In this document: positions 10,127-51,943 of the stretch, piece after piece
Position numbering within the stretch: the first letter of the stretch is position 1
Layout: every line of letters starts with the position of its first letter
Virus record (IMG/VR): IMGVR_UViG_3300046512_000087
Coordinates: 1 to 64,000 of that record
Length of the DNA stretch: 64,000 nt
DNA from: a virus
Reading direction: 5' to 3' (one strand)
Position numbers and translations under genes: made by a program
The notes under the pieces: generated by a model
What the model was told of the DNA's origin: nothing
The model's database searches: none
What the model saw: only the letters and a program-made list of their open reading frames with translations

Positions 10127-10155
10127 TGCGACCACTCCATTGTTTTGTTACCCGT

Positions 10156-10183
10156 ATCTTACCAAATACGGGTAGTTTGTCAA
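10156..10183 (-). promoter_or_regulatory. sigma70-type promoter
   Basis: TTGACA-N16-TAAGAT. Confidence 0.75.
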
Positions 10184-11763: not shown

Positions 11764-11797
11764 CCGTGACACTCCATTGGATTTTGCTGGTAGCCGT

Positions 11798-11825
11798 ATG
11801 ATAGCAAATTGACCTGGTTTGTCCA
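11798..11825 (-). promoter_or_regulatory. sigma70-type promoter
   Basis: TGGACA-N16-TATCAT. Confidence 0.65.
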
Positions 11826-16578: not shown

Positions 16579-17900
16579 GGCACCACCGCCTTAATCTCAT
16601 CCGCTACAACCGCGTTGTACAGCAGGGCACTGTCATCGGACAGGACGAACAACGTCATGTTCTCGTCAACGTTCTCAAACCTGTAGCTGCCGTCAATGCC
16701 ACTGAGTTGCTGGCGCAGTAGAGTGCCAGTGGTCTTGTCGAACAACCGTACTCGGCGCACAGCCGCTACCTCCAGGATCGTCACATGGCCCGCTACTACA
16801 CCCTTGCCGTAGCCAAACACCCGGGGTCCGGCACCACCGTTGGAGATCACTGGGATCAGCGGGCTGAGCATTGGCCTCACGGGCTGGACGTTGAACGCAA
16901 AAGTCCCTGGCAGGAAAGTAGGTGAACGGAACAGAGTCGAGTCCAGTGGCTTGGGGGACCCGTAATTGGAAACAGGCCCTAGTCCCATCTGGCTTACAGG
17001 AGGCCGGGCCCTTGGATCTACATCAAAGTCATTCGACAGAACGAGGTCATTGATGATCCAGTTCTGCACGGTATCAATTGGCACTTTACCCATCTGTAAA
17101 TACTGGAAGAAGCCATTCGCCACGTTACCACGGCAGGTACTTACCTCCAGGTTTTGTCCAGTAGAAGAATCAATGGAGACAGTCACGGCAAAGGGGTTAG
17201 CCCCTGCAACGTTCTTTGCCGCCTCGTAAGCCAGGACTGTAAGGGTGGACTGCACGGCAGGAGTGAAGGCGTCCAGGGCTGCCCCACGGGAACTCCACCA
17301 GTGTGTTTTCAGCTGGTAGGTCACACCGTCCAGAACGAAGTCCTTGGTGACAAAGCCCCCGTACTTGCCGGTGTCAGCTAGCCCAGTGTACGGCACAACC
17401 ATACGATTACTGATGCTACGGACATCTGCCGACATCTGAGCTTCCAGTACATACAGACTGGGCTGAGGAACACCAGTCCATACCGCCACGCGCTCAAACG
17501 AGTTGCCATAGGCAGGCAGGGTTGCGTCCCCAAGCTCCACGTCCAGCATGGTTCTTGATAGCGCTCCACCGATGGTGTAATTCCCTACATCCCACCAACT
17601 AGCCTGCTGTTCTGGGAGCCCTCTGTCGGGGAAGGTCAACACTGTATTTTTTCTAGCCAACAAGGCGTTTGGGTTTGTATCCCCGGACACAGAGTTGGCA
17701 GGGCTAAGTTTTGGTCCTGTAAAGATCCTCAGCACTTGCTCTGTGGCAGTGCTGGGGGCAAAGGCATTACCGTAATTCGGTTTATCAAGGCCGATATTAG
17801 TGTACCCAGTAGAGTTAAACGGGATATTCGAAGGGCTTACACCACTATCCAAAGCTGCGGGGGTATACCCCACCCCGAACCGGGGCAGGATCATTTTCAT
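16575..17900 (-). CDS. tail fibre / receptor-binding-related protein
   Basis: C-terminal RRVRLFDKTTG..DGSYRF..YNAVVAD module; tail operon. Confidence 0.55.
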   Translation of the reverse strand: MKMILPRFGVGYTPAALDSGVSPSNIPFNSTGYTNIGLDKPNYGNAFAPSTATEQVLRIFTGPKLSPANSVSGDTNPNALLARKNTVLTFPDRGLPEQQASWWDVGNYTIGGALSRTMLDVELGDATLPAYGNSFERVAVWTGVPQPSLYVLEAQMSADVRSISNRMVVPYTGLADTGKYGGFVTKDFVLDGVTYQLKTHWWSSRGAALDAFTPAVQSTLTVLAYEAAKNVAGANPFAVTVSIDSSTGQNLEVSTCRGNVANGFFQYLQMGKVPIDTVQNWIINDLVLSNDFDVDPRARPPVSQMGLGPVSNYGSPKPLDSTLFRSPTFLPGTFAFNVQPVRPMLSPLIPVISNGGAGPRVFGYGKGVVAGHVTILEVAAVRRVRLFDKTTGTLLRQQLSGIDGSYRFENVDENMTLFVLSDDSALLYNAVVADEIKAVVP

Positions 17901-38389: not shown

Positions 38390-38866
38390 TTAGTACGTCT
38401 TGCCAACCCGGGCGTCTACTACACAACCCTTTGAAACCTCAAACTTGGCAGCGTACTCCAAAGGCTTCCATCTGTAGCGCTTGTCGGCCCTGATTTCTGC
38501 AACCTGTTCAGCCGTTAGCCGGGACCTATGACTCTCATGACCCTTCCGATATGTCCCCTGCTCCTTCTTATCCGCGATGTTTTCCTTCTGGGTCCCATAG
38601 CTCAAGTTATCAGGGGTATTGTCTCGATCACCTCCGGGGCCATGACGAACCACCTCGCCATCAGGGCGAATACCGTGAAAGGCCTCAGCCACTAGCACAT
38701 GGACTCTTCGGGTCTGACCCTCTACACAGACCCTGAGATATTTATCGGACGCATCACCTTCGAGAATGCGGGGACCGCCTCTGACTGCGGCTGAAGCACG
38801 AATGCGCCCATGACTGGACGCCTCGTACCTAGGAAAGCTGGGGATCTGTTTCCATATCTCAAGCAA
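38390..38866 (-). CDS. NUMOD4-HNH homing endonuclease
   Basis: EIWKQIP..YEASSHGRIR, VHVLVAEAFHG, VRH....DN..DNLSYGT..EN. Confidence 0.88.
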   Translation of the reverse strand: MLEIWKQIPSFPRYEASSHGRIRASAAVRGGPRILEGDASDKYLRVCVEGQTRRVHVLVAEAFHGIRPDGEVVRHGPGGDRDNTPDNLSYGTQKENIADKKEQGTYRKGHESHRSRLTAEQVAEIRADKRYRWKPLEYAAKFEVSKGCVVDARVGKTY

Positions 38867-41234
38867 GTTTGAGGTCCTTTAGGTCTGCCATTGAGGGGCC
38901 GATTTTGCAGTCGGTCACGAACTTCAGCTGCGGGTTCCAGCCCACCTTCTCAAACGGCAGGTTCTCCATCTGATCCTTCTCGCGCTGGGCATAGAACTCG
39001 GCGTTGTCTTCAGGGATGTAGCGATACCCTGCGTCATGGACAAGACCAAAGCACGGGGCGTCCAAGTGGTAGCCCTTTTCCTTACCCTCAGCGATAGCCC
39101 AGATCATCATGTCGGACAGCGTGCCCTGCACAGGGCTGTTGATGGCCCGGCGCTCTTCCTGGGAGCGGATATCCGACATCTTGCTGTTGATCAACGGCAG
39201 GTGGCGCACACGGCCCAGGGGCGAACGGACAAAGCCGTACTTCTTGGCGTGGGCCTTGTATTCCTTGTGGTACTCGGGCAATGCCGGGTAGGTCTCAAAG
39301 AAACCATTACGAAAGGACTCAGATTCGTGGTTGGACAGGTTCACGTTGTAGCTGGTCTTGGCGAAGATCTGGAAGCCAGTGGCGCCCATGCCGTAAATCA
39401 GACCGAAGTTACCTGACTTGCCGATTTGCCGGATGGCCGAGAACTTGTCCGGGTCTGTCAGCTTGAAGCCCATGATCTCTTCGACCGTGTAGCCCACGAA
39501 CTTCGACGGAGTGATGACGTGCAGGTCCAGGTTGTCCCGGTAAACCTGAATCATGGTGGGCTCGTTGGCGATACAGGCGATTACCCTCAGTTCACCCTGG
39601 CTGTAGTCGTTCTCCATTACCAGCATGCCATCCGGGGCTACAAACACCTTGCGCAGCCGCTTAGCCCATTTCGTGTGCTTAGGGATAGTCTGGAACGCCG
39701 GGTCTTTGCAAGACAGACGCCCGGTGTTCGTGCCACCCTCGCCCTCGTCCTTGTTGCCAGCAAAGAGGAAGTAGGTGGGGTGGAACCTGCCGTCACTCCT
39801 GATGTGCTTACGGAAGCCATGTACGTACGTGCCCAGCGTCTTGGTTGCCGTAGAGAAGTCGGACAGCAGGCCCACGAACGGTGCCGCGTCTTCATTGTCG
39901 GCAAACATCATCAGGTGTTCCATGGCCGACGAGATACCACCCTTGGGCGCATACATCTTCGGCGTCAGGTTCAGCCCCATGGGAGAGAACATGAAGTCGA
40001 TCAGCAGGCTGGCTTTCGTCAGGTTCAGGCCACCACGCTTACTGAGGTCCTGGTGCTTGGCAACGATCCTGCCGCCCATGATCTTCTTGGCCTTGTGGAT
40101 CAGCTGGTCAATCTCTTCATTCAGCTCCCCCTCCAGCTTGTTGTACTCGTTCAGGTCCACACAGACCCCGCCCTGCTCAATGAACTCCATTGCCCTGGCG
40201 GCGGGGTGGAGGATGTTGATGTAGAACCGGGTTAACGCTGGATCGGCTAGCAGGTCCTTCTTCTGCTCAATGGACACCCGGAGAGTGGCGTCACCATCAC
40301 CACAGGCGTAGGGCAGCAGGGTTTCTTTGGGGATCAGGTCCATACGGCCCTTGTCCACCGACGAGTTGAACACATCGTCATAGCCACCCATCGTCGTGTA
40401 GATCTTGGCATGGACGTTCAGAGAGTTGCTGCGGTTCTCGTCAAGGATGGAGCCCACCAGGGTGGTATCGAACAGGAAGTTCGTACACTGGATGCCGGTA
40501 TGCACGTACAGCCAGTTCAGGTCGAACTTCAGGTTAGCGCCGCGCAGGGAGATCTTTTCCGACGTCAACAGCTCATGCAGCTGTACTACGAACTCAAGGT
40601 CCGTATTCAACCTGTAGGCCAGCTCTGCCCGGCTCTCAAAGTAAATGGCGTCACCCGTGCCTACCTGTGAGCTGGCCTGGATGGTAACGATGTAGGCGCC
40701 GGGGTGCGATCCATCAGCGGCGGGCTCGCGGTAAGGGTCGAAGCCAATGGTCTCCAGGTCCAGGGCCACGTCTACCCGTTTGCCGCCATTGGCCTTGAAC
40801 TTGGCCCTGACATCGGCCAGCAGGTTGGTGAAGTGCTCCACGTAGTTGTACTTGCCAATCTCAGGCTGTACCACTCCGGTGTTGTGGACCCGGATAGCCA
40901 GATTCACATCGCACAACAGGTCTACGTATTTGCCGTAATCCACCTCGCTGATGCCTGAGGAATAAGACGACAAAACCGGAGCACTGAGCCCCGGTACGGT
41001 AATAGCGTTGTTGCGCAGGCTTGTGATCGTCCTGTTCTTGGGTAGCACCTTCATGTTTTGGAGGTAGGTGATGGGGTCATTACCCAACGTGAGAACAGCC
41101 TTCAGGTCAGGACGATCCGGGAGATACGCGAAGTTGTTGCAGATCTCGTACTCCAGGTCCGGGTACTGCTTCAACCGCCCACCGATTGCTGACAGCACCC
41201 GTGCAGCCGGGTCTTTAGTCCAGATTAAAAGCAT
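38859..41234 (-). CDS. DNA polymerase family A with 3'-5' exonuclease and N-terminal UDG-like domain
   Basis: Exonuclease motifs DLET, NLKFD, YACGD; TGRLSC; motif A DYSQGELR, motif B KSGNFGLIYG, motif C VHDA. Confidence 0.95.
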   Translation of the reverse strand: MLLIWTKDPAARVLSAIGGRLKQYPDLEYEICNNFAYLPDRPDLKAVLTLGNDPITYLQNMKVLPKNRTITSLRNNAITVPGLSAPVLSSYSSGISEVDYGKYVDLLCDVNLAIRVHNTGVVQPEIGKYNYVEHFTNLLADVRAKFKANGGKRVDVALDLETIGFDPYREPAADGSHPGAYIVTIQASSQVGTGDAIYFESRAELAYRLNTDLEFVVQLHELLTSEKISLRGANLKFDLNWLYVHTGIQCTNFLFDTTLVGSILDENRSNSLNVHAKIYTTMGGYDDVFNSSVDKGRMDLIPKETLLPYACGDGDATLRVSIEQKKDLLADPALTRFYINILHPAARAMEFIEQGGVCVDLNEYNKLEGELNEEIDQLIHKAKKIMGGRIVAKHQDLSKRGGLNLTKASLLIDFMFSPMGLNLTPKMYAPKGGISSAMEHLMMFADNEDAAPFVGLLSDFSTATKTLGTYVHGFRKHIRSDGRFHPTYFLFAGNKDEGEGGTNTGRLSCKDPAFQTIPKHTKWAKRLRKVFVAPDGMLVMENDYSQGELRVIACIANEPTMIQVYRDNLDLHVITPSKFVGYTVEEIMGFKLTDPDKFSAIRQIGKSGNFGLIYGMGATGFQIFAKTSYNVNLSNHESESFRNGFFETYPALPEYHKEYKAHAKKYGFVRSPLGRVRHLPLINSKMSDIRSQEERRAINSPVQGTLSDMMIWAIAEGKEKGYHLDAPCFGLVHDAGYRYIPEDNAEFYAQREKDQMENLPFEKVGWNPQLKFVTDCKIGPSMADLKDLKLA

Positions 41235-41813: not shown

Positions 41814-42046
41814 ACCTGCTCCAGAACAAGGTTCTTGCCTTGGACACTTGCGGACACGTCACCGATGGACACGCCCATCCAGTAGCAGGCCAGGGTCCAG
41901 TTGTCGTCTTCATGTTCAACCACAAAGGCCTGGACTTCTTCCCCGGCCAGCGCTGGGATTGGGGATGGAAGGTTGAAGGCGGCGCCAACGGGCGTGTCGA
42001 TCAGGAGCTGCAACAGCTTCACAGCTGCCGGGGAATTAATTTTCAA
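41810..42046 (-). CDS. hypothetical protein
   Basis: Packed ORF. Confidence 0.55.
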   Translation of the reverse strand: MKINSPAAVKLLQLLIDTPVGAAFNLPSPIPALAGEEVQAFVVEHEDDNWTLACYWMGVSIGDVSASVQGKNLVLEQV

Positions 42047-42899
42047 GTTGGGCTTCCTTCAGGTTCTTGGCCTGCTGGTCAAAGCTGATACCGAGGTCCA
42101 TCAACACCGCGCCAATCACTCGGGGCGATGGGATGCCAGTGCAATCCAGATGAACCGACCAGTAACCGTTGTCAGTGAGACTGGCTGTCTCCGAGAAGCC
42201 CAGAGCCTTCAACTTACCCTTCTCGAAAGCGTTGGGTACGCCTTCAGCTCGCAAGGACACCTCGGAACCGTTGATTCGGGCAGCCACTTTCAGGCGCTGG
42301 GAGATAGCTACAGCCCGGTAGATAGAACCTGGACTGGTGCCCCGAGTCATCTGGCCGACCACTGAGGCTGTGCGCAGCTGCACAACGTCTTTGAGGTTTA
42401 CCTTCTTGGGCCCGGCGTCAAACATAGAGGGAACTGGGGCTGGGCCAATCACTGGCTTGGACGGGCCGAACTCGTTGCTGTAGTCGATTCCCGTTACCTT
42501 GGTCTTGAGATCTTCACCCACCAGTTTTGCAATTGATTGCACAGTCTCGGCAGATGCCTCGGTGACTTCAGGTTTCACCTTGGGCTTTACCAAAGCGTCA
42601 GGGTCATAGGTCAGGACGGCATTACCCTGGAGCCACTGATCAGCGCAGTCAGCCAGCAGCTTCTGCACCAATTTTGCTGAGATAATGAAAGTGGCTTCTG
42701 GCGCGTTTCCCTTTAACAGCGAGCTGGTGGAGACCGAAGTGTTGATCTTCATCACCGAGCCGTTGTTGTTCATCGACACGGAGTAGAAGCCAATCTCCGC
42801 TTTAATCCCAGCACTCACCAGGGCCTTATAAGTCACCGAGTGATCAGGGGCCATCTTCTCGAAAAAATCTACAGGATTCATACTTAACTTGATCCCCAT
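42036..42899 (-). CDS. hypothetical early protein
   Basis: Has its own promoter (42934-42962) and CAATGGAGTG leader. Confidence 0.75.
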   Translation of the reverse strand: MGIKLSMNPVDFFEKMAPDHSVTYKALVSAGIKAEIGFYSVSMNNNGSVMKINTSVSTSSLLKGNAPEATFIISAKLVQKLLADCADQWLQGNAVLTYDPDALVKPKVKPEVTEASAETVQSIAKLVGEDLKTKVTGIDYSNEFGPSKPVIGPAPVPSMFDAGPKKVNLKDVVQLRTASVVGQMTRGTSPGSIYRAVAISQRLKVAARINGSEVSLRAEGVPNAFEKGKLKALGFSETASLTDNGYWSVHLDCTGIPSPRVIGAVLMDLGISFDQQAKNLKEAQLEN

Positions 42900-42933
42900 G
42901 TGGGCTCACTCCATTGGTTTATCCTACCCGTGT

Positions 42934-42962
42934 ATTCTCGCTTTATTTGGTAGGTTTGTCAA
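42934..42962 (-). promoter_or_regulatory. sigma70-type promoter
   Basis: TTGACA-N17-GAGAAT. Confidence 0.6.
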
Positions 42963-42969
42963 ATAGGAG

Positions 42970-43665
42970 TCAGGGTTTAACAGCCCAGATAGTCATTTTA
43001 GAGGCTACTGGGTCGATGGTTTTTACACCAGAAGGCTTGCCGGAGAAGCCAGTCCCGAGAGCCGACGTGCTCTTAGGCTTCGAGTGGGTGCTCGGGGAGA
43101 TCGTGGTCTTGGGCCAGGACGTCGTAGCATAGGCCTTGCTGCCCTCTACCTTCGTGATCCCGAAGTGCTTGTTCAGGAACTCGATCTGGTCATGGGTTTC
43201 CACGGCCTTCTTGCAGTAGTGCTTACGGACGTAAGTGATGCTGTCCAACTCGCCGGTCATGAACGTAACCAGCGCCGCCAGGAAGGTTCCGGTGCGGCCA
43301 TGGCCACCAATGCAGCCTGCATGCAGTTTCTTTCCTGCCTGGATCTGCCCAGCGGCCCAACCCACCAGCTGCTTGAACTCAGCGGCATTTGACGGCGCGT
43401 GCATGTCCTTGATCTGGAAATACACTTCTTCCGAGGTCTTGGCCCAGGGCCAGTGACCCTTGCTGAACGACATGCTGTAGTCGAAGCCAATGTAGATGTC
43501 GGCATCCAAAACAACCGGGCTGGAACAGCTGCCACCGAAGACTTCGAACTCACCAATCTTCAGGCCAGGGTGAGTGCTGTAGCACTTTGCAAAGCCTGTG
43601 GGTTTACCACCTGAGGGGCTGCCGCTGGAGAACCCCAGCAAATCGTCATAATGTTTCAAGTTCAC
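42970..43665 (-). CDS. Cys-based protein tyrosine / dual-specificity phosphatase-like protein
   Basis: IKDMHAP acid loop; HAGCIGGHGRTG (CX5R); YVRKHYCKKAVET..Q. Confidence 0.85.
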   Translation of the reverse strand: MNLKHYDDLLGFSSGSPSGGKPTGFAKCYSTHPGLKIGEFEVFGGSCSSPVVLDADIYIGFDYSMSFSKGHWPWAKTSEEVYFQIKDMHAPSNAAEFKQLVGWAAGQIQAGKKLHAGCIGGHGRTGTFLAALVTFMTGELDSITYVRKHYCKKAVETHDQIEFLNKHFGITKVEGSKAYATTSWPKTTISPSTHSKPKSTSALGTGFSGKPSGVKTIDPVASKMTIWAVKP

Positions 43666-44723
43666 ACTCCATTGGTTTCAAGTTTTTTCTTGCGGATGAA
43701 AATCTTGGCTTGTTTCCCTGGCATGACCGGGAAGGCCCCAGTGACAAGAAAGCCGGACTTCGTTTTTTCTGGCTCTGGCGGTTTCGGCGGAAACTTGGAC
43801 TGCTGTTCCTTGATCTTCGAGTCGTAGTTGTGAAGAGCGCCAAGGTCTTTCACCTGCTGCCAGTTCACTTCCGAACCAAACAGATGCGGTTTCAGCTTGT
43901 TCACCACATCCAGGCAGTAAAACACATCCTGAGAACAAGCAACTGGGCACTCTGAGTTCAGGATCATTTCCGGGATCTGACCAGAGCGCTGTACATCCAG
44001 GATCGTGTACAGGCCCTGCCCAAAATGTTCGTACAGCATGCCCTTGTTGAACATCGGGCCATTGTTGTGGGCCAGGGTGTACGAAGTGTCCAGCATCACT
44101 TCCATGCTGGTCTTCCCATGCAGCATATGCTCCAGGGTCTGAGAGATCAGGCCCCAGGGCTTGCCGCCGTAGCCACCACCAAACTTTCCGTTGTTGAACA
44201 TATAGGTGATGCCAGACGACAGGACGCCAATGCTGGTCTCCATATTAGATTCAACAAAGGCATTGGCCGCTGCATCAGAGCCCTTCCCCCGGATTTCCCG
44301 GTTGAAGTCAAAGGTCTCCATACCGTACAGCTCTTTGTACTTGGCCCAGAATGCATCCGTGCTGTGGTCATGGATATGCCGGGACTCACGCACGGTGATC
44401 AGAATCATGTAGAACAACATCCGAGTACCCTGGCGCTCCAGAACCTGATGGTAAATCTGGGCCACCTTGGCAGCCCATTCAGGAAGTGGTTCGTTCGGCG
44501 TGAACTCGGCTTTCACAACAGCCATCAAATGGTTCATGGCGTAGAAGTCTAGGGCTTCCCTTTCAGGTACGGCTTTATTCAGCCCGCCCTTCTCGACTTT
44601 ACCTTTCCAGAACTCTTTGCAATTGATTGCAAGAACCTTTGATGGCGTGGACATCAGCTTGACGGGTCGGATGTACGGTGACTCCGAATACCAGCTCAAA
44701 GTCTGCGATTTGCCGTGTAACAT
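43662..44723 (-). CDS. conserved-looking protein of unknown function
   Basis: 353 aa; motifs RESRH, GGYGGKPW, LAHNNGPMFNKG; own promoter. Confidence 0.8.
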   Translation of the reverse strand: MLHGKSQTLSWYSESPYIRPVKLMSTPSKVLAINCKEFWKGKVEKGGLNKAVPEREALDFYAMNHLMAVVKAEFTPNEPLPEWAAKVAQIYHQVLERQGTRMLFYMILITVRESRHIHDHSTDAFWAKYKELYGMETFDFNREIRGKGSDAAANAFVESNMETSIGVLSSGITYMFNNGKFGGGYGGKPWGLISQTLEHMLHGKTSMEVMLDTSYTLAHNNGPMFNKGMLYEHFGQGLYTILDVQRSGQIPEMILNSECPVACSQDVFYCLDVVNKLKPHLFGSEVNWQQVKDLGALHNYDSKIKEQQSKFPPKPPEPEKTKSGFLVTGAFPVMPGKQAKIFIRKKKLETNGV

Positions 44724-44755
44724 GGCTCACTCCATTGGATTTGTTTCTTAGGCGT

Positions 44756-44783
44756 ATCTTACCAAATTTGGTCAGTTTGTCAA
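44756..44783 (-). promoter_or_regulatory. sigma70-type promoter
   Basis: TTGACA-N16-TAAGAT. Confidence 0.75.
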
Positions 44784-45248
44784 AGATTTACGCCAAAAGA
44801 ACAGCCACGCCCACCGGCGTTTTGCCGCAATACGATCAAGGATCACATCCTGGATCTTGAACTCCATGACGAACTTGTACTGGTCTGCCGTCTCCACGGC
44901 GTGGGGGTAGTAGTTGGCGCGCACGTACTCCACGGGGTTCTCCACCCCGAATGCCCGAGCCAGGACAGCCAGGAACAGCCCGGTGCGGCCTCTGCCTGCC
45001 ATGCAGCCTACGTATACAGGCTTGCCAGCCAGGATGAAGTCAACAGCCTCACGCAGGCCACGGGACAAATCCACCGGATCAGGGACACTGAAGTCCCGAG
45101 TGGGGATGTTGATCGAGCACGGGAGGTTGATCTCCTTGGCCATCTTGACGAATTCCATTTCCGGGTAATCGCGGGCCTCATGGCTCGGGCCACCGGTCAG
45201 GGTGAAGTATTGTTTCGAGTTCAGCGGGATTTGCAATTGACCAAGCAT
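44772..45248 (-). CDS. Cys-based dual-specificity phosphatase-like protein
   Basis: TRDFSVP acid loop; VGCMAGRGRTG (CX5R); YVRANYYPHAVET..Q. Confidence 0.88.
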   Translation of the reverse strand: MLGQLQIPLNSKQYFTLTGGPSHEARDYPEMEFVKMAKEINLPCSINIPTRDFSVPDPVDLSRGLREAVDFILAGKPVYVGCMAGRGRTGLFLAVLARAFGVENPVEYVRANYYPHAVETADQYKFVMEFKIQDVILDRIAAKRRWAWLFFWRKSLTN

Positions 45249-45276
45249 GTGTCACTCCATTGTTTCAAACGGGACT

Positions 45277-45579
45277 TCAGGAATATTCGACTTTGACCTC
45301 TCCGGCCCAGCCACATTTTGCACAACTCAGACCTAAGCAGTCTGGGCATTCTTCATGCACCGTCAGAGCCTGGGAGCCCTTTCGGTATACAACAACGTCG
45401 TCCAGCTGGCTCATGCGGGAAACCCGGTCGCCCTTTACCTCGAAGATCCAGCCGTGGAATCTCCGGTTGCCACGCTCATGAGTCAGGACAGCAGCCTTCT
45501 TCACCATATCGCTCACGTCTTCAACCTTCAGGCTTAGGGACAGGCAGACATGGGTTACCTGGGGGCTGAATTCAAGCAT
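45277..45579 (-). CDS. small protein with C-terminal Zn finger
   Basis: Likely start MLEFSP at 45579; CPDC..CAKC. Confidence 0.6.
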   Translation of the reverse strand: MLEFSPQVTHVCLSLSLKVEDVSDMVKKAAVLTHERGNRRFHGWIFEVKGDRVSRMSQLDDVVVYRKGSQALTVHEECPDCLGLSCAKCGWAGEVKVEYS

Positions 45580-45844
45580 GACGGCCTGCCCGGTCAATCT
45601 GGATGCTCCTGGGAGCTTCGATAGCGAGGCGGCTGGTCCGGTGACCCCTGGTAGGGGAAGACACACCGCAACTGATGAAGACGTCAGGCAGGACCTCCTG
45701 GCGCTCTTGATCGTTGATGGTGTATTCGGCGTCAGCGTTGATCTGGATCTTGATCTTCGTGCCGTCTTCGATGTCCAGGACATGAAGGGCATTAGTGCCG
45801 ATGGTGATCATGCTACCTACGGATACGCCAAGTGAAAGTGCCAT
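45572..45844 (-). CDS. CsrA/RsmA-like RNA-binding protein
   Basis: L.L...VG..ITIG N-terminus and RLAIEAPRSIQIDR C-terminus match the CsrA pattern. Confidence 0.6.
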   Translation of the reverse strand: MALSLGVSVGSMITIGTNALHVLDIEDGTKIKIQINADAEYTINDQERQEVLPDVFISCGVSSPTRGHRTSRLAIEAPRSIQIDRAGRHA

Positions 45845-45848
45845 GATT

Positions 45849-46262
45849 CTATACTCCTAATAGACCCTTAGCCGCTGATGTCAGGTTCCAGGTACTGCCA
45901 CCCTGAACTCCGCGCCTGGACTCCGGTGCTTCCACCAGACCCTTCGCTCTCAGGATTGTCAGGTAACTGGACACATCCGAAACAGAAAATATGTTTCCAA
46001 GATCCGCCAGGGTCTGAGTGACCTCGGCAGAACTCGCAATTTCCAACGCTGTGAGAACCTTCAGGGTGTTCCACAGCTTCGTGTCTCTCTTGGGTAACTT
46101 GATGTCCTCGCGGGTGTCCGTGCGCAGGATCTTCATGTTTTCCAACTGTGTGTACACCACTTTCTGGAATCCACACATACACTGAAGGGTCAAATCCACT
46201 CCATTGCTTGTGGTGTACCGCGCGTTTGGCGACCCACACTTTGGACACTCCGTTCTGACCAT
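45849..46262 (-). CDS. Zn-ribbon + winged-HTH DNA-binding protein
   Basis: CPKC...CMC; SSAEV...VSSYLTILRAKGLVE....GGSTWNLT. Confidence 0.7.
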   Translation of the reverse strand: MVRTECPKCGSPNARYTTSNGVDLTLQCMCGFQKVVYTQLENMKILRTDTREDIKLPKRDTKLWNTLKVLTALEIASSAEVTQTLADLGNIFSVSDVSSYLTILRAKGLVEAPESRRGVQGGSTWNLTSAAKGLLGV

Positions 46263-46301
46263 GTGCTTTCTGCCGGTTAGATATTTCCGGCATTATAGGC
46301 A

Positions 46302-48269
46302 TCATGCCAGCAACTCAGCAATCAGCTGGCGCTCGGTAATGTAGCCATGTTCAGTCACTACCCCGAAGCTCACGATCTTGATCCCCTGGCTTAGCTTCCA
46401 TTCCAGCACCTTAGTCACGGCTTCTGTCGGTTTACCCGTCCAGACCACATCCTGTTCTGCCATTACCAGCTGCTCAAGATCTTTGGCGGAGGCCACGGTT
46501 TTGAGTTTGGTTTTCCATGGGGTCAGCACCCTTAGCTTTTTCTTTTGGTCTTCAGTGAGGCTGGACTCCAACATTTCAATCAGGGCTATATCCTTGGACT
46601 TGTCGTGATCCTCCGAGCGGAAGGGAGCAAAGAACTGCTGTTCCTCATGCCCAAGGGCTCTCGACAAGTCCAGGGTCAGGTCGAAGCTCTCATTGAGGGC
46701 CTTCTTCACGTAGTCCACGGCTTCGAGTACCGGCATGAACAGCAGCTCTGGCATCCGCAACAGCACCCCGTTGGTGACCAGCTTGTGTTCACGGGTGATC
46801 TCGTTGCAATTGATTGCAGCCCACATCATGGCCTTGAACTGCTGGATGTACGGGTCGGCACTGCCGTCAATAACGGGTACTTCGTGCATCCATACCCTGC
46901 CGGTGGCTCCATCAATGGAGACGGTGTTGCCCTCGACAAAGAAGCTGATGTCGGCACCGAGCCCAACCACACAAGGCTTGTTCATGCCCCTGGCAACTAC
47001 CGCTGCGTGGGAGGTGGCGCCGCCAGTCATGGTCAGCACACCCTTGGCAGCATTCATTCCCCCAATGTCATCCGGGGTAGTTTCAGCGGTCACCAAGATG
47101 CACGGGGTTTTGCAATTGATTGCAGCTTTCGATGAGGTGACGATCACTCCGCTTACAACACCAGAACAGGCGGGAATTCCCACGTAATCAGCCACGTTCA
47201 GGTAGTTAGGGTCCAGGATCGCCATCTGAGCCGTGTCGAACTGCTTGGCTGTAACCCGCTTCAGCGCCGCCTTGTAGGTCAGGGAGTAATCCTGGCACAG
47301 ATCCAAGGCCAGTCTCACCGCCGCCCTGGCGCTACGCTTGGCATTCCGGGTTTGCAGGATGTAGAGCTGGCCGGACTGTACAGTGAATTCAACATCCTGC
47401 ACGTCCTTGCGCTGCTCTTCCAGCTGGGCCACGGTATGCATCAACTGGTGGTACGCCTGAGGGTTCCAGGCTTCCATTTGCTGCAACGGGTCTGGGGTGC
47501 GGATGCCAGCCACCACGTCCTCGCCTTGAGCCTTGATCAGGTACTCACCCAGGATATACGGCTCGCCGCTGTCAGGGTTACGGGTGAACAGGACACCAGT
47601 GCAGGACTTGTCATCCATGTTGCCGAAGACCATGGCCTGGACTGTCACGGCTGTGCCCCACTCTTCAGGGATGCCATTCAGGTCCCGGTAGATCTTGGCC
47701 CGAGGATTCTGCCAGCTTTCGAACACTGCCTTGATAGAGCCCAGGATCTGTTCCTCGGCATCCGGGAATTCTTCCTCGGCGTGTGCTTCGTACAGGTCCG
47801 ACCGTTTATTCAGGTCCAGGCCTTCGAAGTGTTCACGGGGAATACCGGCCACTACACTGCCGTACATTTCAATCAACCGACAGGCGCTGTCGTTGGTGCA
47901 TTCCTCGCCAATGCGCTTGGACCATTCTTCATAAGTGCCGGTGTCCAGACCCACGTTCAGGATCGTATCCATCATCCCGGGACAACTCACGCGAGCCCCC
48001 GAGCGCACCGACACCAGAGGCATGTAGCCAAAGTGCTTCTGGAGAGCCTTCAGATAAGGCTTGATCTCCTTCCGCACTTTAGTCATGAACTTGTCGGGGT
48101 TTTTGCAGAACTCTGCGTAGTTGGTCGTCGGGATCACGAAGCCAGGAGGAATGGGCAGACCTTCTTGGGTCATCTTCACCAACCCGGCGCCTTTACCCCC
48201 CAGGACCTCTACCGATTCTTCTTCAACGCTGTAGCCTTTGAGACCAAAAGCCTGGATATTTAAAGACAT
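46302..48269 (-). CDS. PPDK-like dikinase (ATP-grasp + phospho-His domains, no pyruvate-binding barrel)
   Basis: LGGKGAGL, PLVSVRSGA..PGMMDTILNVG, QGEDVVAGIRTP, QDVEFT..LQTR, GGATSHAAVVARG. Confidence 0.9.
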   Translation of the reverse strand: MSLNIQAFGLKGYSVEEESVEVLGGKGAGLVKMTQEGLPIPPGFVIPTTNYAEFCKNPDKFMTKVRKEIKPYLKALQKHFGYMPLVSVRSGARVSCPGMMDTILNVGLDTGTYEEWSKRIGEECTNDSACRLIEMYGSVVAGIPREHFEGLDLNKRSDLYEAHAEEEFPDAEEQILGSIKAVFESWQNPRAKIYRDLNGIPEEWGTAVTVQAMVFGNMDDKSCTGVLFTRNPDSGEPYILGEYLIKAQGEDVVAGIRTPDPLQQMEAWNPQAYHQLMHTVAQLEEQRKDVQDVEFTVQSGQLYILQTRNAKRSARAAVRLALDLCQDYSLTYKAALKRVTAKQFDTAQMAILDPNYLNVADYVGIPACSGVVSGVIVTSSKAAINCKTPCILVTAETTPDDIGGMNAAKGVLTMTGGATSHAAVVARGMNKPCVVGLGADISFFVEGNTVSIDGATGRVWMHEVPVIDGSADPYIQQFKAMMWAAINCNEITREHKLVTNGVLLRMPELLFMPVLEAVDYVKKALNESFDLTLDLSRALGHEEQQFFAPFRSEDHDKSKDIALIEMLESSLTEDQKKKLRVLTPWKTKLKTVASAKDLEQLVMAEQDVVWTGKPTEAVTKVLEWKLSQGIKIVSFGVVTEHGYITERQLIAELLA

Positions 48270-48302
48270 TTACCGCACTCCATTGGGTTTTTCCTTACCC
48301 GT

Positions 48303-48330
48303 ATGATCTCATATTTACAGGGTTTGTCAA
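48303..48330 (-). promoter_or_regulatory. sigma70-type promoter
   Basis: TTGACA-N16-GATCAT followed by a CAATGGAGTG leader. Confidence 0.6.
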
Positions 48331-48334
48331 ATGA

Positions 48335-48508
48335 TTAGCCCCAGCGATTGCCCTTATTACGCTTGCGCTCACCTTTGCCTTTCTTGACTCGGATTCCCAG
48401 GTCAATACTCAGAGGTGGAGGCGCCTCGATTTCGAGAGTGGCGATAGAGCCGTACAGCATGCAAAACAAGGCAACCCGTTCAGCTCCCAGAATCCGTATT
48501 CTGCTCAT
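48335..48508 (-). CDS. small basic hypothetical protein
   Basis: 57-aa ORF with ATGA overlap to the ligase stop. Confidence 0.45.
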   Translation of the reverse strand: MSRIRILGAERVALFCMLYGSIATLEIEAPPPLSIDLGIRVKKGKGERKRNKGNRWG

Positions 48509-49467
48509 TCGTCCACCAGATCGTAGTCGTCACGGATGCAAACCCAGGTCGGGAACCGAGGCTTGGTTTTGATCCCTTTGGGGAAGAACTTGAACTTGAT
48601 GACCTTCTCGACAATCTTGCCGGGGTTCTGCCAGAAGTCCAGGGCTTCCTTCTCGGTCATGTTACCCGGAGACACCGTGATCTTGTCCCCTTTCTTCAGC
48701 AACAGTTTCTTCGAGTGGGCGTCGAACACGTCTTCCATCAGGGTGCAGAGCATGTTGCCAAGCATGCCATTCGGGATCATGTTCTCCTGGTGGCTGGTGC
48801 GAAAGGTCTTGCCCAGCTCATTCTTCTGAGCCACGTTCCCGTTCTTATTGCCTTCGGTGATTTCGTTCACCATGGCGTTGGCTTCCATGAAACCCTTGAT
48901 GCGCAGGTAGCCACCTTCTCGCACGGTGCTACGGCCTTCCTTGTGTGGCAGGTCGAGTGCTCGCATGATCGAGCCCTCGTAGCCTTCAGAGAGCCACAGG
49001 TCATCCATTGCCAGCACTTCTTCCTTGGTCTTGGCGATGATCCAGGGAACGAGGCGCAGGTTGTCTGCAAGACCTTTATCTTTCAGCTCGTTGTAGCGGA
49101 TGTCTCGCAGGGCCAAGCGGTCGATATAGGGCAGGCTCCGGGATTCAGGAGTCAGGTAGTCGAACAGCCACCAGTCCAGGGCGTTCGTCTTGTCCTTGCT
49201 ACTGGTCACCGAGGTTGTGCCTCGGCACAAGTCCGGGTGGGTGGACATACCCTTGAGAGCCAGCTCACCATCGAAGCCGTTGTACTCAAAGCGGTCAAAG
49301 CAACGGTTCACGAAGACGTTGGGGAAGCGCTTCAACGACCGGCCTGTCAATGGCCCGTCCAGAGCCAGGGCCCGCACGCCGTCAATCTTCGGCATCAAAA
49401 TTACGGGGAATTTCTGTTTATCCAGGTCAGCGTCACAGGCGAGATACGGCTTCGTCATGGTTTGCAC
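48505..49467 (-). CDS. ATP-dependent DNA ligase
   Basis: PKIDGVR (KxDG), FDGEL, LFDY, GYEGSIMR and PRFP motifs. Confidence 0.93.
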   Translation of the reverse strand: MQTMTKPYLACDADLDKQKFPVILMPKIDGVRALALDGPLTGRSLKRFPNVFVNRCFDRFEYNGFDGELALKGMSTHPDLCRGTTSVTSSKDKTNALDWWLFDYLTPESRSLPYIDRLALRDIRYNELKDKGLADNLRLVPWIIAKTKEEVLAMDDLWLSEGYEGSIMRALDLPHKEGRSTVREGGYLRIKGFMEANAMVNEITEGNKNGNVAQKNELGKTFRTSHQENMIPNGMLGNMLCTLMEDVFDAHSKKLLLKKGDKITVSPGNMTEKEALDFWQNPGKIVEKVIKFKFFPKGIKTKPRFPTWVCIRDDYDLVDE

Positions 49468-50016: not shown

Positions 50017-50200
50017 GTTTCATACCCTCCAGGATCTTCTGGGCTTTCGGACCCGGGAATCGGCGCCATTTGATGTGTGGGTAGTCAGCTGCCACTTGCC
50101 TGAACGTGTGCCAGCTGCACCCAAACTCTTTGAAGGCTGAGGTCCTACTATGCCCCTTTGCGGCCAGGGCCATCAGAACAGCCTCCACTGACTCAGACAT
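50009..50200 (-). CDS. small hypothetical protein, possible HTH
   Basis: Packed ORF. Confidence 0.5.
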   Translation of the reverse strand: MSESVEAVLMALAAKGHSRTSAFKEFGCSWHTFRQVAADYPHIKWRRFPGPKAQKILEGMKRE

Positions 50201-51134
50201 TCTCTCGGGCCATCCGGCGTTTATGCTCTGTCATCAGAGCCCGGTAAGTATCAGGTGGCAACATGTCCTTGGCTACAGTTTTGAGCAACGTGCCGTAGGC
50301 GAAGTCTTCTTCCTTGTGTATAGCAATGTTCACCAGTTTCAAATACACCCGGACTTTCGCCAGCTCCTTGCGGGCCTTCGACTTGGCCGACAGCCAGTAA
50401 TTCTTCCGGGACTTTTCCAGCATCATCCGGGCTTCAGCATCCATGTACCGGCCAGCAGCGTCAGCCTCCCGCAACTGGAGGATCACCTTCTGCTCAATCA
50501 ATGGCAGGCGGGACACCGCCGCGTAGTCGATGATTGGCGGGTCCTCGGCAAACACCATCGGAGTGAAAGGGATCTCTTCACGCGGTATCAACACGGCTGG
50601 TTTCTCCACCACCGGCAACTCCACTGGAGCCTCCAGAAACTTAGGCGGTGATTGCACTACCGTAAGCTCTGGCATGTCATGGGAGCGGGAGACATTGCAG
50701 GGCTGGCAGGCCAGGGTCATGTTGTTCCTACCATCCAGTCCTCCCCTGGCAAGGGGGATGATGTGCTCCAGTGTCGAGGTGTTGATAGTCACCTCACAGT
50801 TGCACCACCGACAGGTATTTACACCCTTGTCCAACAGGGCCTGCCGGTGGCCTCTGCTCTCTTTGCTCCGGCGCCGAGCACGGTCCATCTTCGGAACAAT
50901 AGCTGGAGCCCGGTTAGCCATCTCCACGGCCTCCAGGGGCGACACGTCATGCTTGCCTCTCACCGTGCCTGCAACATAGGCCGTGCGTTTGCTGCTGAAC
51001 GGGTAGTAGTTGACCAGCAGCTGGCCTTTGATTTGGAAGTGGCCTGGGGCGGGTTCCGAAAAGTCCAGTTCTCTATCTTTGCACAGCTGATACAACGTAG
51101 CGTACATCGCGTTCTGGGCCGTCCGTGTGCTCAT
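50193..51134 (-). CDS. HNH endonuclease-domain protein
   Basis: CRWC...TLEHIIPLARGGLD..NNMTLACQPCN. Confidence 0.85.
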   Translation of the reverse strand: MSTRTAQNAMYATLYQLCKDRELDFSEPAPGHFQIKGQLLVNYYPFSSKRTAYVAGTVRGKHDVSPLEAVEMANRAPAIVPKMDRARRRSKESRGHRQALLDKGVNTCRWCNCEVTINTSTLEHIIPLARGGLDGRNNMTLACQPCNVSRSHDMPELTVVQSPPKFLEAPVELPVVEKPAVLIPREEIPFTPMVFAEDPPIIDYAAVSRLPLIEQKVILQLREADAAGRYMDAEARMMLEKSRKNYWLSAKSKARKELAKVRVYLKLVNIAIHKEEDFAYGTLLKTVAKDMLPPDTYRALMTEHKRRMARENV

Positions 51135-51943
51135 GCCTGCTTCTCCAGCTCAGCCTTGTACAGGGCTTCTACGTGGGCGATGTGTTCCTGGGTCTGAGCC
51201 ACACCGGCAGCGTTACAGGCCAGGAACATCTTCAGGCAATCAGCCCGGCTGGCATTCTCCGGCAGAGTGCAAACGGCTACAGCCCTGTCCTCGAAGTTGT
51301 GGCGGTCCATATAGGACAGCTGATACCAGAACTTGCCGCGCCAGGACCAACGCCCCTCCATGAAGTCCAGGATGGCGTTGATGCGCTGCTTACCGTCGAT
51401 GATTTCAGTACGGTTTTCAGGCCACTTGTGGTGTTTGAAGATGAAACTGCCAATCGGGTAACCAGCAGCGATGTTATCCATCAAGGCCACCCGGTCTTCT
51501 TCAGTCCAGACATAGCCACGCTGGTAGTCGGGATTGTCGATGTAGCCCCAGCGCTGGATGCTGCTCAAGGCGCTACCAACGTGCTGGTTGGAGAACGGCC
51601 ACATCCAGCTACGGCCAATCATGGTGGTGTCTTCCCTGGTATCCAGCGGGATCACATCAGTCCAAGGCCACGCCCCGTACTTGATTCCGTCGTCAAATGG
51701 TCTCCCGTACTTCTCACCTTTGTCCAAGCACTTGATCACAATCACCTTGCCATCGTGGGCAGTGGCCACTACTTCAGGCTCCACCAGATTACCAACTTCC
51801 ACTTTCATGCCCGGCCACAGAGTCCAGGTGGGCTCTGATAACGATGCTGGGTCTGTAAGGCGGGTGCTTTCAAAGTTACTGAGGCAGAGCTTGATCCACT
51901 CTTCTTCAGTTTCTGGGAGTTTCACTACTGCTTTCTTCGCCAT
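51131..51943 (-). CDS. DUF262 (ParB/Srx-fold) domain protein
   Basis: PDYQRGYVW, GYPIGSFIF, EIIDGKQR and F...N.AG motifs. Confidence 0.85.
   Translation of the reverse strand: MAKKAVVKLPETEEEWIKLCLSNFESTRLTDPASLSEPTWTLWPGMKVEVGNLVEPEVVATAHDGKVIVIKCLDKGEKYGRPFDDGIKYGAWPWTDVIPLDTREDTTMIGRSWMWPFSNQHVGSALSSIQRWGYIDNPDYQRGYVWTEEDRVALMDNIAAGYPIGSFIFKHHKWPENRTEIIDGKQRINAILDFMEGRWSWRGKFWYQLSYMDRHNFEDRAVAVCTLPENASRADCLKMFLACNAAGVAQTQEHIAHVEALYKAELEKQA

Follow-up and report, generated by a model that had tools for sequence, protein, structure and literature searches.

A possible phosphotransfer module of siphophages: a PPDK-derived dikinase kept with two Cys phosphatases and a 353-residue protein

What use does a virus have for a PPDK-like dikinase that lacks the motifs for pyruvate, and why is it accompanied by two Cys-dependent phosphatases and a 353-residue protein that matches no known family? 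The question is raised by a locus in the stretch of DNA analysed here (the window), which comprises positions 1 to 64,000 of the IMG/VR virus record IMGVR_UViG_3300046512_000087, a 95%-complete genome. A sequence-only reading had proposed that the four genes, each behind the same CAATGGAGTG leader, form a non-metabolic system that phosphorylates and dephosphorylates some target, a DNA base among the candidates. The present analysis points, at somewhat short of an even chance, to a lineage-defining phosphotransfer module in which an ATP-charged His421 of the dikinase would pass its phosphate to a non-pyruvate acceptor, plausibly on the 353-residue protein, and the phosphatases would remove it. 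The features concerned are as follows.

46302-48269, minus strand: PPDK-derived dikinase / His autokinase, 655 residues (ATP-grasp, swivel and a probably vestigial C-terminal domain)
47007-47009, minus strand: codon of the predicted phospho-acceptor His421, inside GGATSHAAVVARG (from the motif position)
46305-46898, minus strand: C-terminal domain of the dikinase, residues 458-655, predicted reduced beta/alpha (TIM-like) (AlphaFold2 model and fold search)
44772-45248, minus strand: PTP-B (ptpB), dual-specificity-type Cys phosphatase, 158 residues, Cys82 in CMAGRGRT
43662-44723, minus strand: open reading frame (ORF) of the 353-residue protein, orphan-fold and enzyme-like by prediction, candidate acceptor-site subunit
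42970-43659, minus strand: PTP-A (ptpA), Cys phosphatase, 229 residues, Cys118 (231-residue numbering) in CIGGHGRT

The dikinase and its C-terminal domain

Up to the end of the swivel the dikinase resembles PPDK closely. The ATP-grasp domain matches Pfam PPDK_N (PF01326, E 1.7e-47) and the swivel matches the PEP-utilizers mobile domain (PF00391, E 7.6e-24); GGATSHAAVVARG begins at residue 416, which makes His421 the catalytic His, equivalent to that of PPDK and to His422 of VadK, and both domains are intact, as the sequence-only reading had it. The protein as a whole matches PHROG 18609 ('kinase') with E 7.7e-172. On the PPDK equivalog TIGR01828 it scores 470.6 bits, below the cut-off of 843.45, and on NF004531 (PRK05878, the actinobacterial short PPDK) 452.2 bits versus a cut-off of 456, over profile positions 20-463 of 534; a Pfam scan gave no match to PEP-utilizers_C (PF02896).

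The remainder of the chain was examined by comparing, among the fetched loci, the tails of full-length PPDKs (about 906 residues) with those of the short phage dikinases. The barrel motifs R[TS]E[HF], [GS][TS]ND[LM] and CGE are found in 13/13 full-length tails, whereas 0/29 short phage tails contain them. The short tails are homologous to one another but have no detectable sequence kinship to the barrels, since hhalign gives E 1.2e-5 against the tails of other short dikinases and E 0.6 against real barrels. They evolve fast (mean column identity 27%), their alignment contains no conserved catalytic residue and almost no conserved polar residues (just two acidic positions, partly conserved), and the domain measures about 200 residues versus about 350 in the PPDK barrel.

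In the AlphaFold2 model, residues 458-655 (pLDDT 75) are built of alternating beta/alpha elements, and the top match of a VIA-wide fold search is the phosphoenolpyruvate (PEP)-binding domain of a PEP synthase (9dae_A, Z 7.2, 140 residues aligned), while two Enzyme I C-domains give Z 6.6 and 6.4 and the remaining listed matches are predominantly TIM barrels. ESM features of the domain also weakly indicate PEP-utilizers_C. The likeness to PEP-binding barrels is a lead and not a proof, because these Z values are tied with those of generic TIM barrels. On the model, the C-terminal 200 or so residues are probably a shrunken, degenerate remnant of the PEP/pyruvate TIM barrel and not a foreign domain, decay of the ancestral barrel in situ being the simplest reading because the domain sits directly after the swivel. 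The earlier description of this region as unrelated to the barrel thus holds for the absent PEP/pyruvate motifs but not for the predicted fold, which is closest to the PEP-binding barrels of PEP synthase and Enzyme I.

This domain also bears on the possibility that the protein is a genuine PPDK which, as the product of an auxiliary metabolic gene, converts pyruvate to PEP and back, the function published for Vibrio phage vB_VneS_J26. For the J26 homologue, a four-strand 'PBD' with PEP docked into it has been taken as a working PEP site (PMC12038007), and the strong PPDK-likeness of the N-terminal 470 residues, as well as the partial TIM-like fold of the C-domain, agree with such a function. 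Nevertheless, the PEP/pyruvate and Mg2+ motifs are all missing in 29/29 short tails, the domain has roughly half the size of the barrel, and the real PPDKs found in viral contigs never occur with the module (0/15). The published interpretation of J26 is contradicted because every catalytic motif has been lost, and the sequence evidence likewise contradicts the several phage genome papers in which the dikinase gene is called an auxiliary metabolic PPDK boosting host glycolysis. With the barrel motifs gone throughout the family and the TIGR01828 score so far under its cut-off, the metabolic-PPDK reading is unsupported, as had been anticipated from this one locus: judged from its sequence, the dikinase is very unlikely to be a metabolic PPDK, and a pyruvate/PEP-interconverting auxiliary enzyme of the published kind is given only the slightest of chances.

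The phosphatases and the 353-residue protein

The two neighbours of the 353-residue gene are CX5R Cys phosphatases, in agreement with the sequence-only reading. PTP-B, with CMAGRGR at residue 82, matches Pfam PF22785 (E 8.4e-7) and PF13350 (E 7e-6) and, by phmmer against the PDB, PTP domains down to E 8e-9, while PTP-A, with CIGGHGR at residue 118, matches archaeal-type PTPs in the PDB (phmmer E 3e-8). Among solved structures, the two are closest to receptor-type PTP domains, archaeal-type PTPs and DUSP23. Each holds a general-acid Asp about 30 residues upstream of the P-loop, the CX5R-Thr signature and an AVETxxQ Q-loop with its Gln. The P-loop of PTP-A reads CIGGHGRT in 68/77 orthologues, with the hydrolytic set kept in 69-76/77; for PTP-B, almost every one of the 75 orthologues has a CMGGxGRT-like P-loop, and 71-73 keep the CX5R[T], Asp and Q-loop elements. 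Across about 150 orthologues the phosphatases are under purifying selection. Because the general-acid Asp, CX5R-Thr and Q-loop are conserved, PTP-A and PTP-B are predicted to be active hydrolases and not mere phospho-carriers. A phosphorelay, with the two proteins serving as phospho-Cys carriers, was set aside since both retain the hydrolytic Asp and the Q-loop.

PTP-A has, in addition, a disordered, low-complexity Ser/Thr/Lys-rich linker followed by a conserved C-terminal P-[VMI]-x-S-x-[RK]-x-[IL]-W (window 42970-43120; orthologues L005-L148), which in this window reads PVASKMTIW and looks like a docking motif for a partner. Its start codon is most likely TTG 43659, rather than GTG 43665, as inferred from leader spacing, because GTG 43665 forms the end of the CAATGGAGTG leader. 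The PTP-A orthologue of phages DLP5 and DLP3 (DLP5 16580-17368) is annotated 'thymidylate synthase (ThyX)', a label that PHROG 17568 also bears; this looks like a propagated misannotation, because the ThyX profile matches DLP5 73394-73921 instead.

The 353-residue protein belongs to a family of 794 representative clusters at 50% identity. Its 20 invariant columns are rich in Arg, Lys, Glu, Asp and His and are joined by a GGxGGKPW loop; E113, R115, G186, G187, W190, D212, H219, N220, K227, D243 and Q245 are among them, and these charged residues together with the Gly-rich loop look like a phosphoryl/Mg2+ site. The AlphaFold2 model (pLDDT 92, pTM 0.86) is all-alpha with a C-terminal hairpin, and comparison with the PDB gave no convincing relative (Foldseek best E 0.08; VIA-wide search best Z 5.2; VIA re-scoring of the Foldseek matches best Z 4.4). 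BFVD returned unnamed orthologues only, and a look-up in the ESM Atlas was uninformative. No family was found in NCBIfam, PADLOC or a PDB profile search, nor by Pfam at E up to 5 for any of 61 members of the family; the Pfam scan gave no PF00391, and RPH is absent among the listed fold matches. Likewise, the thymidine-hypermodification transferases (AADT / aGPT-Pplase; PaMx11 gp46, PDB 8Z2M) are not among the listed fold matches, of which the best has Z 5.2. Longer homologues (434-573 residues) show no known domain and include neither a PTP nor a dikinase portion, and searches of longer homologues returned no relevant fusion of the 353-residue protein or of PTP-A. A di-metal protein based on ExxH (E113-H116) was considered and dropped, there being no ferritin-like or HO-like fold match. 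Taken together, the model and the conservation suggest a highly conserved, enzyme-like protein whose fold appears to be absent from the PDB.

Co-inheritance, transfer route and gene neighbourhood

The association of these genes was followed across related loci, where two further core genes accompany them.

42036-42899, minus strand: p287, a 287-residue core protein between PTP-A and PolA, with CAATGGAGTG leader; no match in Pfam or PDB
38859-41234, minus strand: PolA, downstream of p287 and a 136-residue protein

Anchored on the dikinase, and counting in IMG/VR those short dikinases with at least 4.5 kb of downstream flank, the 353-residue gene is found downstream of 26/26 short dikinases versus 0/15 full-length PPDKs. 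Anchored on the 353-residue gene, a PTP adjoins in 78/78 IMG/VR loci and in 10/10 loci from bacterial genomes or metagenome-assembled genomes (MAGs), with the dikinase, p287 and PolA also present wherever the flank reaches. Across 103 related loci p287 (103/103), the PTP family (205 copies) and the 353-residue gene are universal, and the small regulators vary. In one sub-lineage (L109) the arrangement is contiguous, the dikinase being followed after 43 nt by the 353-residue gene and this after 1 nt by a PTP, and the module order is likewise annotated in Stenotrophomonas phage DLP5 and Rhizobium phage RHph_TM16. The co-occurrence that the sequence-only reading depended on is therefore borne out, in the 26 short dikinases and in 88 loci anchored on the 353-residue gene, although within a single siphophage lineage, that of Stenotrophomonas phages DLP5 and DLP3 and of Rhizobium, Rhodobacter and Vibrio phages with genomes of roughly 90-100 kb. 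Among the loci retrieved, none carried the module outside this PolA-sharing lineage (PolA 36-61% identity). A 4.65 Mb region of a Thalassobaculaceae MAG chromosome (L146), with a dikinase fragment (residues 342-481), one PTP, most of the 353-residue gene and no PolA, looks like a decayed prophage remnant of the module lineage.

Because all of these loci belong to one phage lineage that also shares PolA, their co-occurrence is not phylogenetically independent, and the synteny could be inherited and not functional. The genes might accordingly be unrelated core genes that keep an ancestral order within one phage family, for which the common PolA and p287 and the interspersed regulator genes can be cited; but the order persists with PolA identity down to 36-40% and in hosts from several phyla, and while the intervening genes vary, the dikinase, the 353-residue gene and a PTP are always present, so that mere shared ancestry is considered a poor bet.

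For the phosphotransfer module favoured here, the domain content, the lost motifs, the intact catalytic sets and the joint inheritance are shown, and the transfer steps, all of them inferred, would run as follows. The dikinase would autophosphorylate His421 from ATP, like the truncated PPDK VadK of Mycobacterium tuberculosis, and its swivel domain would hand the phosphoryl group on to an acceptor other than pyruvate, at a site that the 353-residue protein most likely supplies in trans; the vestigial barrel may serve as a scaffold or for dimerisation. Hydrolysis of the phosphorylated product or target by the two phosphatases would then either close a cycle or clear away a phosphorylated intermediate at a later stage.

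Several observations weigh against this module. Within the window, three unrelated small genes intervene between the dikinase and the phosphatases, and every co-occurrence lies within one lineage that shares PolA, p287 and gene order. The C-terminal model is of moderate confidence (pLDDT 75), with Z values of 6.4-7.2 tied with generic TIM barrels. No fusion of the dikinase with the 353-residue protein was found, which is a weak test, nor was there any direct tie of the phospho-His to that protein, and nothing places the kinase and the phosphatases on one common target. Finally, the known split dikinases are cut elsewhere, between the ATP-grasp domain and a unit of swivel plus substrate domain (PMC12167813).

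A more specific form of the proposal, viewed with some doubt, is a new kind of split dikinase, in which the ATP/His engine would charge the 353-residue protein. As a subunit of the enzyme, that protein would in turn phosphorylate a macromolecule, for example the ends of nucleic acids, a protein of the replisome or the host, or a nucleotide signal, and the two dedicated Cys phosphatases would reset the mark. If this is true, the phages encode a system of reversible phosphorylation on which a whole siphophage family depends.

The dikinase could also be a regulatory autokinase like VadK, whose phospho-His form would bind and modulate a protein of the host or the phage, or would pass phosphate to a protein in the way that PTS Enzyme I phosphorylates HPr. 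The phosphatases and the 353-residue protein would then have separate jobs, such as dephosphorylating host proteins during takeover. The NF004531 (VadK-type) score just under its cut-off (452 versus 456 bits), the dikinase C-terminal domain without a conserved active site, the docking-type peptide on PTP-A and the fact that VadK works via protein partners (PMC13400623) are all compatible with this. It would, however, leave the absolute co-inheritance and the contiguous dikinase, 353-residue and PTP genes of L109 unexplained, and no target protein is identifiable; such a division of labour is judged unlikely.

The module is embedded in a block in which the minus strand carries every gene within 42,036-49,467, in the order DNA ligase, a 57-residue ORF, dikinase, 137-residue protein, CsrA-like protein, Zn-finger protein, PTP-B, 353-residue protein, PTP-A, p287, a 136-residue protein of unknown function and PolA. 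A megablast of the region against phage records gave no match. The additional features are:

48505-49467, minus strand: ATP-dependent DNA ligase, two genes upstream of the dikinase
48276-48285, minus strand: CAATGGAGTG leader over the dikinase ribosome-binding site, with identical copies at 45253, 44728, 43665 and 42907 and six more elsewhere in the window
45849-46262, minus strand: 137-residue Zn-ribbon plus winged-helix protein, regulator-like, with a weak match to the Csa3 winged helix-turn-helix
45572-45844, minus strand: CsrA-like protein, 90 residues (Pfam CsrA E 1.5e-6, 28.5 bits versus a cut-off of 27)
45277-45579, minus strand: small Zn-finger protein of about 100 residues, the real portion of a 171-residue ORF

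The last three are the genes that separate the dikinase from ptpB. The Zn-ribbon/winged-helix gene is present at 30/103 related loci and the CsrA-like gene is kept in most relatives; relatives of the 171-residue ORF align by tblastn over its C-terminal part only, and the DLP5 homologue of the Zn-finger protein is annotated 'transcriptional repressor'. A proposal that the two small genes following the CsrA-like gene are paralogues was rejected, as they are not paralogous in this genome.

The position of the module between ligase and PolA favours a target tied to genome replication or to nucleic-acid or nucleotide handling over one in central carbon metabolism. Another reading is end healing, in which the dikinase would phosphorylate a 5'-OH, the Cys phosphatases would strip 3' or 5' phosphates and, with the ligase two genes upstream, RNA or DNA cut by host defences would be repaired. 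PTP-fold enzymes do include RNA 5'-phosphatases. On the other hand, no dikinase is known to use polynucleotide ends, and the ligase, a DNA ligase of the standard replication type, is not adjacent in most relatives, which leaves end healing with a low probability.

The position between ligase and PolA has also been read in terms of DNA or nucleotide modification, the dikinase activating a base or nucleotide at a hydroxyl or carbonyl group, the 353-residue protein performing the substitution and the phosphatases tidying up. The DNA of the related phage DLP3 resisted 15/15 restriction enzymes tried (PMC7326821), and the genome carries a cluster of ParB, amino-sugar and glycosyltransferase (GT)-like genes. 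No ThyA, ThyX or TET/JBP was found in this 95%-complete genome, however, and thymidylate synthases are patchy in relatives (ThyA 2/29, ThyX 12/29), so that a 5-hydroxymethylpyrimidine route is unsupported. Furthermore, the GT-like gene occurs in just 8/31 relatives while the module is universal, and the 353-residue model has no listed match to solved structures, DNA-modifying transferases included, and no Pfam family in 61 members. A DNA base as target, one of the options of the sequence-only reading, therefore finds no support, and modification of DNA or nucleotides by this module is improbable. The sugar cluster itself lies next to the terminase (genome 77460-85464, outside the window; L061:13460-14317, L062:422-6464) and comprises ParB, a 486-residue GT-like protein, a PIG-L deacetylase, an RmlC-like protein, a DegT aminotransferase, a SAM methyltransferase and WbqC. 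An obligatory link between it and the module was rejected and the cluster is regarded as accessory, because the GT-like gene is present in only 8/31 related phage genomes; the restriction resistance of DLP3 may well be due to this cluster rather than to the dikinase module.

The leader shared by the four genes, cited in the sequence-only reading as a sign of co-regulation, is indeed found before all of them, but it marks no private regulon. In the window CAATGGAGTG occurs 11 times without a mismatch, always on the minus strand, and 19 times with at most one mismatch versus 5.75 expected. It stands 4-8 nt before the starts of the genes for the dikinase, PTP-B, the 353-residue protein, PTP-A and p287, and also precedes five other genes, one of them an unknown 362-residue ORF beside an AAA ATPase gene. 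Because it precedes p287 and these other genes too, it is not specific to the module but a general expression signal that includes a Shine-Dalgarno sequence. One exact copy inside the Zn-ribbon/winged-helix gene (46197-46206, minus strand) may mark an internal start or be due to chance. About 10 nt upstream of several CAATGGAGTG leaders is a ATACGGGTAA-like box (48295-48304, 10148-10157, 42924-42933, 44748-44757 and 11790-11799, all minus strand), which alone, with at most two mismatches, has 46 matches versus 24.5 expected; box and leader make up a conserved element of about 30 nt, possibly a phage promoter or an RNA regulatory site.

Other observations concern genes beyond the module. Residues 1-150 of PolA (window 40785-41234) form an N-terminal extension of about 150 residues preceding the exonuclease motif; an LGNDP in this N-terminus was considered as motif A of a uracil-DNA glycosylase, but this is a resemblance only, to which a PDB sequence search gave no support. 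Directly downstream of PolA and overlapping its end is an HNH_3/NUMOD4 homing-endonuclease-like gene (38390-38866, minus strand). At 50193-51943 (minus strand) a stand-alone GmrSD_N/DUF262 protein (270 residues, Pfam E 2.4e-21) overlaps the start of the gene for a 313-residue HNH nuclease, a phage-borne pair that resembles modification-dependent nucleases and for which PADLOC gave NsnA and PtuB-like matches.

Comparison with known systems

Throughout a large and widespread phage family, whose hosts are Vibrio, Stenotrophomonas, Rhizobium, Rhodobacter and many uncultured organisms, the module is kept as an invariant core block; some phages of this family are under development for aquaculture and clinical phage therapy. 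One of the module's proteins belongs to a large family (794 clusters) whose fold, predicted with confidence, has no match among solved structures. Identification of the acceptor would establish a new role for the swivelling-His dikinase engine and probably bring to light a new step of phage replication or host takeover.

With PPDK (EC 2.7.9.1; TIGR01828) the phage dikinase has in common the ATP-grasp domain, the swivel with GGxTSHAA, the domain order and a beta/alpha domain after the swivel; it differs in a C-domain of about 200 versus about 350 residues that is without PEP/pyruvate/Mg2+ motifs, in a score of about half the cut-off, and in being always linked to phosphatases and a protein of apparently new fold. 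In the plant starch cycle, glucan water dikinase and phosphoglucan water dikinase act with the DSP phosphatases SEX4 and LSF2. There, as is proposed here, a PPDK-type dikinase of non-pyruvate specificity is combined with two dual-specificity-type Cys phosphatases in a cycle of phosphorylation and dephosphorylation, but the domain order of the glucan dikinases is another one and nothing indicates a glucan substrate for the phage module; Pfam scans of the dikinase and of either phosphatase gave no carbohydrate-binding module family.

The two-component small-molecule dikinases HpeHI, CreHI and PpsAB, as well as rifampin phosphotransferase, also use non-pyruvate acceptors (PMC12167813), and they share with the proposed module an acceptor specificity that resides outside a PEP barrel and catalytic parts that can occupy separate polypeptides. 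In those enzymes, however, the split leaves the ATP-grasp domain on a chain of its own and joins the swivel to an RPH-like substrate domain, whereas the phage ATP-grasp and swivel share one chain and the putative acceptor protein is of unrelated fold. VadK (Rv1127c; NF004531/PRK05878) of M. tuberculosis, a truncated PPDK that autophosphorylates His422 in an ATP- and Mg2+-dependent manner and acts through protein partners (PMC13400623), is likewise a PPDK-derived kinase without a working barrel, and His autophosphorylation is predicted for the phage protein alike. In contrast to VadK, the phage protein retains the vestigial C-domain, is phage-borne and has as its partners two PTPs and the 353-residue protein in place of methylcitrate-cycle genes. 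PTS Enzyme I, finally, resembles the phage dikinase in its swivel His domain and in the fold of its C-domain (Z 6.6, 6.4) and hands phosphate to a separate protein, as is proposed here, but it takes that phosphate from PEP in an intact barrel, while the phage protein has an ATP-grasp domain and no PEP site.

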